Part shown: positions 30,418 through 33,549 of the stretch, piece after piece
Position numbering within the stretch: position 1 is the stretch's first letter
How the letters are laid out: the number at the start of each line of letters is the position of its first letter
Assembly (NCBI GenBank): GCA_964421635.1
Contig: CAYQWZ010000002.1
Coordinates: forward strand, 65,749-129,748
Reading direction: 5' to 3'
DNA length: 64,000 bases
Source of the DNA: an uncultured Candidatus Saccharibacteria bacterium
GTDB taxonomy: Bacteria > Patescibacteriota > UBA1384 > CAILIB01 > JAUSJZ01
Translations under genes and position numbers: made by a program
The notes under the pieces: model-generated
Seen by the model: only the letters and a program-made list of their open reading frames with translations
What the model was told of the DNA's origin: nothing
The model's database searches: none

Positions 30418-33400
30418 ATGAGGAAATTGCTTTCTAAGCGGATGACATTTGTTTATTCGCTCTTATCAATCCCAATGATGGTGGTTTTGGGTGCCAGCTC
30501 CGCTAGTGCGGCAGCTACACTTCAAGGTACTACATTGGATTTTAACATGGGTGGGTCGAGCATTGTGGAGAATGGGAATTTGGTCGTTAAGACCGATGAC
30601 CTTTTGACGCTAAATGCTGGCTCGCAGGTAGAGACTACCTCTGACCTTAAGGTCGGTGGCCGGCTCATCATCGCTAATGGCGATCGAGATGACGGTACCG
30701 GTATATATAAGGATGGAGACCTCCACATCACAACCGGAGATCAAATGTGGTTTGATGCTGGAACAGTTAATGCCAGAGATGACCTTGTCGTAGGTGATGA
30801 CCTAACGATTAAAGGTGATTTGGTACTTAGAGGGGCATTAGATTTGCCTGTTGGTAGTGTCACATCGACAATGTTGCTAAATGGCACAGTCGCTACTGCT
30901 GATTTGGCAGGTAGTTCAGTCACTAGCGCCAAAATCGCTGATGCAACTATCGCTGCTGCTGATTTAGCTGCAGACATTGCTATTACCACAACTGGTGCTG
31001 CCTCTTTCGGGGATGTTACAGTTGGTGGTGGTGAGTTATATGTCACAGGCGTAGCTTCTTCGGCTTCAACAACCGAGGGTACAATTTACTACGATACTGA
31101 TGATGACAACCTATATGTATATGCCAACGGTTCATTCGTTGACTTAACAGCCGGTGCTGCTGGTTCAAATACATTAGATGATGCCTATAATACCAGCGCT
31201 GGCGCCTCAACCGTTTTGGTTGATAACGGTGATTTGATATTGCGTTCAAATGCCGCAGGTTCGGATATTATCGTTGATTTAGCTAGCACAGGTGACTTTA
31301 TCTTTCAAGATAACGGAACCGATGTTGTTACCTTTAATGATAGTGGTAGCCTAACCATGGCGAGTGGTACACTGGCTCTTAACAATGACACTGTTACCTC
31401 AGATGGTGACCTGTCAATTACCGGAGCAACCGGTGCCAACCTAGTTGCAACAACTGGTGATTTAGACTTAACTTCTTCTGCTGGTTCAGTTGTCATAACA
31501 GGCGCTGAAGCTGCAGCTGACGCTATCACCTTAAATGCTTCTGACGCTGCAGGTGGTATTGATATTGACGCTGGCACAGGTACGATTGATGTATTACAAA
31601 CAGGTACAGTTGCTGGTGATGGAATTACCATAGCTACCACCGATGGTGGTGTGGCTATAACTGCTGCTGGTGCTGCTAATGGAGATATGACACTAACAGT
31701 AGGTGATGATTTTGTCGCCAATGTTACTGGTATTTGGGACAACAATACTACCGGCGCTGTTACCGTTGACACTGCCGCTGGTATCTCACTTGATGGTGCA
31801 ACGGCTTCCAACTTTACTGTTACCGGGGCTTCAGAAGACTTAACCTTGGGAGCAACGGGTGGCTCGATTGTCGCTACCGCTACCGAAGATGCTGCTGATG
31901 CTATCGTCATAAATGCTTCTGCTGGTGGTGTAGACGTTACTGCCGCTACCTATAATGTGGATATAGTTGCTACTACACTAGATGTAAATATTACTGGTGA
32001 GACCAACGTTGATGTTGCTGCCACATCTGGTGATGTTACTGTCGCATCTGGCGATGATATTCTCAACACAGCCGGTGACGAGTTCGATGTCACCGCTACT
32101 GGTTTGGTTGACATAAACGCTGGAGCTAGTATGGACGTTGATGTAACGGGTGCATACACGATGGACGCAACGACTTCCTTCTCCATTGATGGAGCGGGTA
32201 CAGCTTCCAATGTTACTTTAGCTGCTGACGGTGACAATGATGACTTAACGGTAGCTGTAACTGGTGCCCATGATGCTAGCTTGATTCTACAATCTGCTGG
32301 TACAGGAGCCGATGCTGTTAAGATCAACGCTTCTGCTGGTGGTATTGATATAGATGCTGACGACGGAATTGCTATTGATGCTGCTGGTACGGCTGGTGAA
32401 GATATTGTAGTTACGAACACAGGTGGTTCAATAATCCTTTCAGCTACAGAAAGTGCTGCTGATTCAGTTCAGATCACTTCAACAGCTGGTGGTATTGATA
32501 TTGCCGCTTCTGGTGCTGCTGCTGGTGAAGACATTGATATTACTACTACTGGTTCAAGCGTTAACATCAGTTCAACTGAGAATGCAACGGATGCTGTTAC
32601 AATAACAGCTTCTGCTGGTGGTATTAATATAGCTGCCACTGGTGCAGCTACTGAGGATATTACCTTGGTTAACACAGGTGGTTCAATAGGTCTTTCAGCT
32701 ACTGAAGATGCAGCTGATGCGATTACCATTGCAACCACAGCTGGTGGAATGGATATCACAGTTGCTGGTGATACTGCTGGCGATGATTTGGATATCGTAG
32801 CCACAGGTACTGCTACAGAGATTCGAGTAACCTCTGCTTCAGCTACAGTAGATGCAATAAGTTTGCAAGCCTCCGCCGGTGGTATTGATATAGATGCCGC
32901 TAACGAAGACTTGGCATTAACTGTTACATCTGATGGCGCTGGTGATGATTTGACTCTTACTCAAGTAGGGGCAAACGATTCTAGCATAGTCCTTACCGCT
33001 GCTGGTACAGGAGCTGATGCTATAAGTTTGCAAGCTTCTGCAGGTGGATTTGATATCGACGCTGCCGCAGCTTCGACTATCAGTACCTCAAATGATGAGA
33101 TTACCATTGCTACTGGTACAGCCGATGTAGTGCTTACTGGTTCAGCAATCGGTACAGCTGCTTTGACGGTAACTGCTGGTGACGTAACGTTAACAAGTGG
33201 TAACTTCACCCAGACAGCTGGTACAGTTTATCTTGCAGTAACCACTGCTGGCGCAGGTGCGGGCAATGATGAGACGCTTGATACAACCAATGCTGTTAAT
33301 CAGTACGACGCAGGTGGTGCTTCACGAACAGGAGTAATCCTAGAAGCTCCTACTGCTAACGGTCAGATCGCCTATATCATCAACATTTCAGACGCTGCTG

Positions 33401-33549
33401 AGAACATTACCTTTGCTGCTGTTGGCACCTCAAACGTTGCCAACGGTGTTACATCCGTAATTGGTCAGAATGAAGCAATGGGATTTGTTGCTGGTACAGT
33501 TGCTGGTGGTGACTTAGTCTGGTTCCCAATGACCTCCGCAGGTCAGTAG
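30418..33549 (+). CDS. Large secreted, highly repetitive Thr/Ala/Gly/Asp/Val/Ile-rich surface protein (1043 aa), tail-fibre-like / beta-helical adhesin-like.
   Basis: Signal peptide MRKLLSKRMTFVYSLLSIPMMVVLGASSASAAA. N-terminal motifs LPVGSVTSTMLLNGTVATADLAGSSVTSAKIADATIAAADLAAD resemble phage tail-fibre 'KIADGAVT' repeats. The central part has at least 10 tandem ~37-aa repeats of the form [AS]TE[DS]AADA[IV]TI.ASAGGIDI.A.G.A.GEDI.[IV]..TGGSI.LSA. All antisense ORFs across it are low-complexity artefacts. Confidence 0.7.
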   Translation: MRKLLSKRMTFVYSLLSIPMMVVLGASSASAAATLQGTTLDFNMGGSSIVENGNLVVKTDDLLTLNAGSQVETTSDLKVGGRLIIANGDRDDGTGIYKDGDLHITTGDQMWFDAGTVNARDDLVVGDDLTIKGDLVLRGALDLPVGSVTSTMLLNGTVATADLAGSSVTSAKIADATIAAADLAADIAITTTGAASFGDVTVGGGELYVTGVASSASTTEGTIYYDTDDDNLYVYANGSFVDLTAGAAGSNTLDDAYNTSAGASTVLVDNGDLILRSNAAGSDIIVDLASTGDFIFQDNGTDVVTFNDSGSLTMASGTLALNNDTVTSDGDLSITGATGANLVATTGDLDLTSSAGSVVITGAEAAADAITLNASDAAGGIDIDAGTGTIDVLQTGTVAGDGITIATTDGGVAITAAGAANGDMTLTVGDDFVANVTGIWDNNTTGAVTVDTAAGISLDGATASNFTVTGASEDLTLGATGGSIVATATEDAADAIVINASAGGVDVTAATYNVDIVATTLDVNITGETNVDVAATSGDVTVASGDDILNTAGDEFDVTATGLVDINAGASMDVDVTGAYTMDATTSFSIDGAGTASNVTLAADGDNDDLTVAVTGAHDASLILQSAGTGADAVKINASAGGIDIDADDGIAIDAAGTAGEDIVVTNTGGSIILSATESAADSVQITSTAGGIDIAASGAAAGEDIDITTTGSSVNISSTENATDAVTITASAGGINIAATGAATEDITLVNTGGSIGLSATEDAADAITIATTAGGMDITVAGDTAGDDLDIVATGTATEIRVTSASATVDAISLQASAGGIDIDAANEDLALTVTSDGAGDDLTLTQVGANDSSIVLTAAGTGADAISLQASAGGFDIDAAAASTISTSNDEITIATGTADVVLTGSAIGTAALTVTAGDVTLTSGNFTQTAGTVYLAVTTAGAGAGNDETLDTTNAVNQYDAGGASRTGVILEAPTANGQIAYIINISDAAENITFAAVGTSNVANGVTSVIGQNEAMGFVAGTVAGGDLVWFPMTSAGQ
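31500..33110 (+). repeat. Intragenic tandem repeat array (~111-nt / 37-aa units, diverged) within the large surface-protein gene.
   Basis: Recurrent nucleotide blocks: gcttctgctggtggtattgatatagatgc (near 32330), gcctccgccggtggtattgatatagatgc (near 32870), gcttctgctggtggtattaatatagctgc (near 32610), gcttctgcaggtggatttgatatcgacgc (near 33035), gcttctgctggtggtgtagacgttactgc (near 31915), gcttctgacgctgcaggtggtattgatattgacgc (near 31537). Confidence 0.6.

Follow-up and report, generated by a model that had tools for sequence, protein, structure and literature searches.

A probable cell-surface fibre built from phage tail-fibre modules in a Patescibacteria-like bacterium

The gene described here lies at positions 30418..33549 (+) of a 64-kb stretch of contig CAYQWZ010000002.1 (the window; 64,000 nucleotides, contig positions 65,749 to 129,748), and we refer to its product as the fibre protein. 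With moderate confidence we interpret this product as a Sec-exported cell-surface fibre of a Patescibacteria-like bacterium, built from phage-fibre modules, used as a cellular protein, and oligomeric (most likely trimeric); from its sequence, it probably acts as an adhesin. The open reading frame (ORF) begins with ATG and encodes 1043 amino acids (aa), and both coordinates and length agree exactly with those in the original prediction, an earlier reading of the same DNA. The compositional bias noted there is also evident, with T/A/G/D/V/I accounting for 70% of residues, and 90% if S, N and L are added; the description of the protein as 'giant' is too strong for 1043 aa. There are no Cys residues, K+R total 17 against 138 D+E, and the mature protein has a predicted mass of ~98 kDa and an isoelectric point of ~4.05. 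An exact-sequence look-up found the identical protein on three contigs, and an assembly artefact is therefore disfavoured. There is no second copy (paralogue) of the gene in the window.

The best-supported point is the connection to phage tail fibres, which the original prediction had offered as its second option, and which is carried by homology of the repetitive shaft and by the spike/fibre-tip fold of the C-terminal knob. A large-database search with the fibre protein gave 472 hits, which makes the family of the 43-aa shaft repeat a large one. Most of the 120 hits listed, which we designate class B, are proteins of ~820–860 aa that lack a signal peptide and are encoded on contigs of 35–41 kb. 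The shaft of the fibre protein is 36–58% identical to the phage members of class B over 200–650 aa, with E-values from 1e-42 to 1e-61 (computed in a 120-sequence database), and alignments to homologues reach E = 1e-42 to 1e-126. Control queries made by reversing the sequence, or by shuffling it globally or locally, score no more than 38 bits, so the similarity to class B reflects homology and not composition. The distal part of the shaft is the segment closest to the phage fibres.

Several lines of sequence evidence indicate that the class B proteins are phage tail fibres. First, the one class B contig examined in detail (L001) is phage-like, with genes for the recombination proteins ERF and YqaJ as well as numerous small ORFs, and the family is present in 67 IMG/VR viral loci. 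Second, the C-terminus of the L001 member (P0014) matches PHROG 972 ('tail fiber protein proximal subunit'), and a class B-related member (P0092) matches Pfam K1-lyase_C. Third, a profile of the class B family matches solved structures of the T4-type long-tail-fibre proximal subunit gp34 (9x3r, E = 1.4e-7) and of gp12 short tail fibres (9f4b, E = 2e-4), both matches running through N-terminal 'ATETxAGIxExAT' repeats. A tblastn search of 50,697 GenBank phage records with the fibre protein and P0014 gave no match, possibly as a result of low-complexity masking, and phmmer finds no match to the fibre protein among PDB sequences. The shaft itself is not matched by any Pfam, NCBIfam or PHROG profile in the fibre protein, nor is it in any of seven homologues scanned. 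Its repeat has no detectable sequence similarity to a solved structure, and a nine-sequence alignment proved too variable to seed a genome scan.

The fibre protein and class B proteins such as P0014 share a shaft of 43-aa units (8–9 units per phage protein), a very acidic composition and a near or complete lack of Cys, but they differ in three respects. The class B proteins have no signal peptide and carry N-terminal repeats like those for virion attachment in gp34 and gp12, whereas the fibre protein has a signal peptide followed by an unrelated domain. Their C-terminal domain is of the K1-lyase_C type and, as far as sequence tells, appears to belong to another family than that of the fibre protein. 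And they are encoded among phage genes, in contrast to the fibre gene, which lies among housekeeping genes and tRNAs.

Two features of the phage contigs are worth recording. In L001 and IMG/VR loci L019–L045 the fibre is the best-conserved gene (44–66% identity), with other large genes at 22–40% or undetectable, a pattern not usual among receptor-binding proteins; PHROG matches are lacking for nine of ten large proteins of L001. Four other contigs with fibre-related segments (L003, L007–L009) are binned in Gammaproteobacteria or Pseudomonadales metagenome-assembled genomes (MAGs), and may be phage contigs binned with their hosts, a point of relevance to the host range of the related phages.

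The C-terminal knob (aa ~935–1043; 33220..33546, +) is a beta-sandwich of the phage spike/fibre-tip type and a candidate ligand-binding tip. An AlphaFold2 model from a 53-sequence alignment has a predicted local distance difference test (pLDDT) score of 91.6 and a predicted template modelling score of 0.81. When this model was compared with the PDB using Foldseek, the best matches were all phage structural proteins, namely the Pa223 capsid spike (E = 8.9e-4), tailspike 4 of CBA120, a depolymerase from an Acinetobacter phage and a baseplate chain from a Klebsiella phage. Predicted viral structures (BFVD) contribute 97 matches at E ≤ 1e-3, among them minor tail proteins of Gordonia phages, tail-fibre proteins, and collagen-repeat proteins of giant viruses that carry a C-terminal BclB domain. 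Searched exhaustively with phmmer, aa 915–1043 recovered 145 representative clusters, in which the domain ends fibre-like proteins of 700–960 aa, mostly without signal peptides, and is also present as stand-alone proteins of 110–160 aa and in tandem arrays; it is encoded in 46 IMG/VR loci. Pfam PF25692 (Phage_depo_C, 'Phage depolymerase C-terminal beta sandwich domain') is matched by 35 of 53 small tip relatives, and phmmer alignments of the tip reach E = 1e-18 with proteins that pass the PF25692 threshold (P0126, P0127). The knob thus shares its small beta-sandwich fold, and sequence-related members, with PF25692 and phage spikes (Pa223, 9ny6; CBA120 TSP4, 7rej; Solidus depolymerase, 24qj), but differs from them in that no depolymerase beta-helix lies upstream of it.

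In two loci the knob has a different context. In L081 (1842–3299) and L080 (1495–5075) it either stands alone as a 118-aa protein or terminates an 817-aa fibre, in each case immediately following a gene for a 333-aa protein that in L081 has a faint match to Mu gpT (major capsid). This suggests that the knob has head-decoration or head-fibre roles in some phages.

The N-terminus sets the fibre protein apart from its phage relatives. In MRKLLSKR / MTFVYSLLSIPMMVVLGA / SSASA|A the n, h and c regions are arranged as in a Sec signal peptide (aa 1–31; 30418..30510, +), with predicted signal peptidase I cleavage after ASA; this was recognized by inspection and hydropathy, in agreement with the signal peptide described earlier, and from it we infer that the protein is exported. 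A hydropathy profile of the whole protein shows no further hydrophobic segment. All of the homologues from cellular contigs have a signal peptide, and the phage homologues have none. The cellular proteins that we group as class A (P0002–P0009, P0012 and P0024) are 800–1800 aa long with N-terminal signal peptides, and one of them (P0003) is surrounded, much as in the window, by LepA, MurJ, FtsH and tRNA genes. L082 encodes a 923-aa orthologue that is 52% identical over aa 198–1043, and L004 encodes a signal-peptide protein with shaft units of the same type. Among GTDB representative genomes, related segments are present in MAGs named Nomurabacteria, Saccharibacteria and 'Patescibacteria group'. 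These relatives in Nomurabacteria, Saccharibacteria and other Patescibacteria MAGs lend support to the original picture of an exported, repeat-built, fibre-like protein in a probably host-associated, reduced-genome bacterium.

Comparison of the cellular homologues reveals a mosaic of modules. Immediately after the signal peptide is a lineage-variable domain (aa 32–142; 30511..30843, +) that is modelled at a pLDDT of ~30. It is common to P0003 (39.5% identity) and an upstream ORF of L078 (35%), but is replaced by other N-terminal modules in P0002, P0004, P0006, P0008, P0009, P0012 and L082; three N-terminal module types were seen among the homologues. It is a candidate cell-proximal or anchoring module. 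There follow two ~20-aa repeats read from the sequence as SVTSxKIxDxTIAxADLA (aa 143–190; 30844..30987, +), which account for the N-terminal motif quoted in the earlier reading (two ~20-aa copies at aa 143–186). This repeat type, for which Pfam, NCBIfam and PHROGs have no matching profile, is expanded at the N-terminus of P0002, P0004, P0006, P0009 and P0012. The signal peptide and N-terminal ~110 aa appear, on sequence, to be specific to the cellular proteins, whereas the shaft and tip have phage-encoded counterparts and the neck, described below, has its counterpart in a fibre-like protein that lacks a signal peptide.

The 'neck' domain (aa 198–330; 31009..31407, +; motif GTIYYDTDDDNLYVYANGSFVDLT...LDDAYN) is the best-conserved part of the protein among cellular homologues. 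It is 79% identical in a Patescibacteria MAG locus (L006) and 69% identical in a Saccharibacteria locus (L005), and a marine Patescibacteria MAG has it in several secreted proteins that are neighbours of one another. It is 37% identical to aa 34–113 of P0137, the fibre-like protein that lacks a signal peptide and whose tip belongs to the same family as the knob. The AlphaFold2 model has strands and one helix at aa 223–277. No IMG/VR match to the neck domain emerged from a pattern scan. Tips vary as well: P0008 and L082 have the same tip as the fibre protein, P0003 and P0005 have a different one, P0004, P0006 and P0007 have a Cys-containing tip, and in L085 the tip of the fibre protein (77% identity) is on an unrelated secreted body. 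Variation of N- and C-terminal modules around a conserved core is the pattern expected of a specificity-determining fibre.

Two of these homologous loci are unusual. In L006 (1048–13767, from the marine Patescibacteria MAG) there are five consecutive same-strand ORFs of 739, 1043, 397, 1735 and 311 aa; the four N-termini read have signal-peptide-like starts, two of the ORFs share the neck motif but not the 43-aa shaft, and the run may be a surface-protein gene cluster. In L078 (7298–13012) the homologue is split over three overlapping ORFs in different frames (486, 454 and 1058 aa), and is either a ~1900-aa gene broken by frameshifts arising from sequencing error, or a pseudogene.

Of the alternatives to a fibre that engages a partner, the one that survives best is a structural coat or 'nap' protein, S-layer-like or BclA-like, that protects or shapes the envelope with no specific partner. 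The acidic, Cys-free, T/A/G/D/V-rich and exported character of the protein is compatible with this, and a stand-alone gene with an AT-rich upstream region and a strong terminator, directly after tRNAs, would be in keeping with high expression. In Bacillus, the exosporium nap fibres BclA and BclB are trimeric filaments of the cell or spore surface that end in a C-terminal beta-sandwich knob. They and giant-virus collagen fibrils share such a knob with the fibre protein, the fold of whose tip resembles that of viral proteins annotated with a BclB C-terminal domain, and a PDB profile search also weakly matches a spore filament subunit (E = 0.028). However, BclA and BclB have a collagen stalk, and the fibre protein has neither collagen GXY repeats nor any run of four or more GXY triplets; the likeness seen is one of fold. 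SLH, CWB2 and other S-layer anchoring domains are absent in Pfam and NCBIfam scans, the homology is to fibre shafts and not to lattice-forming proteins, and the tips and N-termini vary among homologues in the manner of specificity modules rather than of a uniform coat. We regard a coat function as unlikely.

A second alternative holds that the protein is secreted in soluble form and is not a fibre but an enzyme or toxin, such as a polysaccharide depolymerase acting on host envelopes. The tip relatives fall in a Pfam family named after phage depolymerases, the solved-structure matches include tailspike depolymerases, and no anchoring motif was found. However, scans of the whole protein against Pfam, NCBIfam and PHROG reveal no profile of a catalytic beta-helix, a lyase or a hydrolase (the sole match in these three is a sub-threshold one to DUF2345, discussed below), the monomer model contains no beta-helix, and the domain matched in the depolymerases is the non-catalytic C-terminal sandwich. 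An enzymatic function seems to us quite improbable.

The shaft has been redefined relative to the original prediction of at least ten tandem repeats of ~37 aa. The tandem repetition itself is real: within aa 621–910, self-identity is 0.243 at a lag of 43 residues and 0.263 at a lag of 85, both above the maximum (0.233) of 500 composition-preserving shuffles. The period is 42–43 aa and not ~37, and the consensus string first proposed itself counts 43 residues. A repeat hidden Markov model (HMM) locates eight clear units, starting at aa 363, 488, 626, 676, 719, 761, 806 and 861, and ~6 degenerate units between aa 327 and 620. The proximal shaft (aa 331–625; 31408..32292, +) consists of ~124-aa super-repeats with clear 43-aa-type units at aa 363 and 488 as well as degenerate units; the units at 363, 488 and 626 lie within this ~124-aa super-repeat (lag-124 autocorrelation, z = 5.2), and the same 124-aa spacing is present in the homologue P0002. 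The distal shaft (aa 626–905; 32293..33132, +) has six tandem units spaced 42–55 aa apart (43 where uninterrupted), with the consensus [AS]TExAADAItIxASAGGIDIxAxGxAGEDIxIxxTGGSIxL.

The repeats had also been proposed as a hotspot for length variation, and we reject recombination or slippage of this type. At the DNA level the units are only 52–64% identical, the longest exact repeat is 20 nucleotides (nt), and in this gene Tandem Repeats Finder detects no array with the period of the repeat, just two short ones (2.2 copies each) whose periods are 21 and 12 nt. The units are too diverged in DNA for the gene to be other than a poor substrate for slippage or frequent unequal recombination. Unit number varies solely between distant homologues, with 8–9 units in the phage members and 0–15 clear units in 11 class-A-type homologues, some of whose sequences are truncated. 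A search of JGI (Joint Genome Institute) metagenome contigs found no near-identical strain variants in which repeat number could be compared, the closest relative being 52% identical.

How the shaft folds bears on a further alternative, the earlier proposal of a monomeric adhesin with a single-chain parallel beta-helix of the autotransporter-passenger, FHA or pectate-lyase type. The regular repeats, alternating aliphatic residues and Gly-rich turns are in keeping with it, and one homologue has been named 'fibronectin-binding autotransporter adhesin' by JGI. However, in the AlphaFold2 monomer model (100-sequence alignment) aa 330–790 have pLDDT values of 60–88 and almost no DSSP strands, with none outside aa 531–567. 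A single-chain beta-helix is normally modelled with clear sheets, and a nearly strandless monomer therefore leaves this form unsupported. Foldseek finds no match to the full-length model and no beta-helix, there are no matches to pectate-lyase, hemagglutinin, autotransporter or other Pfam beta-helix profiles, and no beta-barrel anchor is present. We have rejected the single-chain helix on these grounds and give it very little credence.

The model is instead consistent with an intertwined oligomer, given intermediate-to-high pLDDT together with almost no intrachain strands, and on this modelling the fibre is probably intertwined and trimeric. The DUF2345 match noted above (aa 446–561; E = 0.0016, 18.8 bits against a cut-off of 30.7) is a weak link to the triple-stranded beta-helix of VgrG/gp5, and a monomer without intrachain sheets is what would be expected of one chain of an intertwined structure; other VgrG domains are absent from the fibre protein, in which it differs from VgrG/gp5.

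The genomic context argues for a cellular gene. The window includes genes for LepA, MurJ, FtsH, tRNAs, two membrane-anchored proteins, BipA and sugar-nucleotide enzymes around the fibre gene, and the flanks of the locus are conserved and non-phage in related contigs (L002, L078 and L082). No capsid, tail, terminase or integrase genes are present within ~10 kb on either side, and no att-like direct repeats flank the locus. With the signal peptide, these features suggest that the gene is cellular and that a prophage is unlikely. A genuine phage, prophage or tailocin receptor-binding protein lying in the chromosome would account for the shaft, neck and tip all having phage-encoded relatives (counting the fibre-like P0137 as the relative of the neck), for the adjacent tRNA genes, which are common integration sites, and for a serine recombinase ~6 kb upstream of the L078 homologue, but it is the least credible of the explanations considered, in view of the Sec signal peptide absent from phage homologues, the neighbourhood just described, and the absence of gp34/gp12-like virion-attachment repeats.

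The upstream boundary of the locus is a tRNA-Glu(CUC) gene (29993..30067, +; ARAGORN and Rfam tRNA), the last of a tRNA-Met/tRNA-Met/tRNA-Glu array, with FtsH (27621–29498, −) upstream of the array and divergent from the fibre gene. The array ends in a terminator-like hairpin and T-run (30070..30116, +; −14.4 kcal/mol, z = −3.7, with 0 of 200 shuffles as stable), and between this and the fibre gene is an AT-rich untranslated region (30117..30417, +) containing a lone TATAAT at 30328–30333. A ~350-nt AT-rich leader had been described here; the distance from tRNA-Glu to the ATG is indeed 350 nt at 28% GC, but it is an intergenic gap of which the first ~50 nt are the tRNA-array hairpin. A consensus promoter scan of the + strand of the upstream region found no full promoter, and there is no Shine-Dalgarno-like motif before the ATG. 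The gene does have its own intrinsic terminator, as had been proposed (33592..33635, +; a 16-bp stem and T-run, −26.4 kcal/mol, z = −6.9). The fibre gene or its homologue is immediately preceded by a tRNA gene in three contexts (tRNA-Glu in the window, 29993–30067; tRNA-Ala in L078, 6708–6783; tRNA-Asp in L082, 5219–5293), which could represent old insertion at tRNA sites or co-expression driven from tRNA promoters.

Two neighbours share synteny with the fibre gene. Immediately downstream is a gene for a 327-aa protein with an N-terminal membrane anchor and no Pfam match (33646..34629, +), whose orthologue in L082 (57% identity) directly follows the fibre orthologue there; it is a possible partner of the fibre, as an anchor or assembly factor. 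The next gene is convergent (34643..35596, −) and encodes a 317-aa protein that also has an N-terminal membrane anchor and no Pfam match. Proteins of ~310 aa that are 50–56% identical to it are encoded at the equivalent relative position in L002 and L078, and the family is tiny, with four clusters.

Taken as an adhesive fibre, the protein might work as follows. The signal peptide, as read from the sequence, would take the chain across the membrane, and the variable segment of aa 32–190 may hold the fibre at the envelope, possibly together with the two syntenic membrane-anchored neighbours; this is the weakest step of the proposal. The neck and the homologous shaft of 43-aa and 124-aa repeats (aa 331–905) would then form a beta-structured rod, presumably in an oligomeric fold, and the knob, through its beta-sandwich, would be displayed distally and bind a ligand on a host cell or surface.

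Several observations weigh against this interpretation. No LPXTG, SLH, lipobox or second transmembrane segment was found, so retention at the surface is assumed; specifically, the LPXTG-like C-terminal motif and hydrophobic segment of sortase-anchored proteins are absent, and the fibre protein also has no RTX GGxGxD nonapeptide repeats. The knob itself scores below the PF25692 threshold (25 bits) and has no Pfam match at E ≤ 0.01. An HMM of the class B phage C-termini does not match the fibre protein, and alignment of its tip with the class B K1-lyase_C tip by hhalign, although in register, has a probability of 27% (E = 7e-4). The full-length monomer model is poor overall (mean pLDDT 55.6). 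A surface fibre could serve roles besides adhesion, and the case for an adhesin is built on sequence and model; the assignment of the window to Patescibacteria is likewise drawn from its relatives and gene content.

Four other features of the window deserve mention. A perfect GC-rich palindrome (GCCTGCCTGCCGGCAGGCAGG) is at 29758–29778, in AT-rich surroundings within the 230-nt spacer between the tRNA-Met genes. The 1.1 kb between the convergent 317-aa gene and BipA (35600–36720) contains no convincing ORF and has no Rfam match even at E ≤ 1; positions 36001–37000 are 44.7% GC, above their neighbours, and the region could be an RNA of a new type, a decayed gene or a mobile remnant. Positions 61001–62000 are 56.6% GC against a window average of 39.6%, and lie inside a 380-aa ORF (60941–62083) that has no Pfam match and in whose GC-rich block Rfam finds nothing. 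Finally, positions 55001–60846 contain a same-strand run of genes for exported or membrane proteins (460, 151, 933 and 397 aa), of which the 933-aa protein has a near-threshold match to TrbL/VirB6 (25.4 bits against a cut-off of 25.9); the run may be part of a patescibacterial type IV secretion system.

Patescibacteria are very abundant and mostly uncultivated, and apart from type IV pili and a few lectin-like proteins little is known of how they recognise their hosts and stay attached to them (PMC10633639, PMC11623550). The adhesins reported there as essential in the Saccharibacterium Southlakia epibionticum are VCBS, dockerin and FN3 proteins (PMC10633639). They resemble the fibre protein in their proposed role, as extracellular host-contact proteins of epibiotic Patescibacteria, but their domain content is unrelated to it. 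Keyword look-ups in that paper turned up no phage-fibre-like protein, and in the literature searched by keyword, exported proteins of this phage-fibre-like type are nowhere described for Patescibacteria. Surface fibres that end in a knob, like the tail fibres of phages, are known types of structure; what is new here is the repeat family, its cellular use with a signal peptide, and its distribution in the phylum.

The fibre protein is a record of gene flow in Patescibacteria between the fibres of phages and the surface proteins of cells. As a conserved exported fibre that has parts in common with the receptor-binding proteins of phages, and end modules that are exchanged from lineage to lineage, it is a testable candidate for a determinant of host specificity. 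We suggest, tentatively, a broader possibility that patescibacterial epibionts acquired whole receptor-binding fibres from phages, with neck, shaft and tip, equipped them with a signal peptide, recognise their hosts with them, and still exchange tip and shaft modules with phages. If this is true, then the knob would be a readable determinant of epibiont host range, as receptor-binding proteins are for phages.

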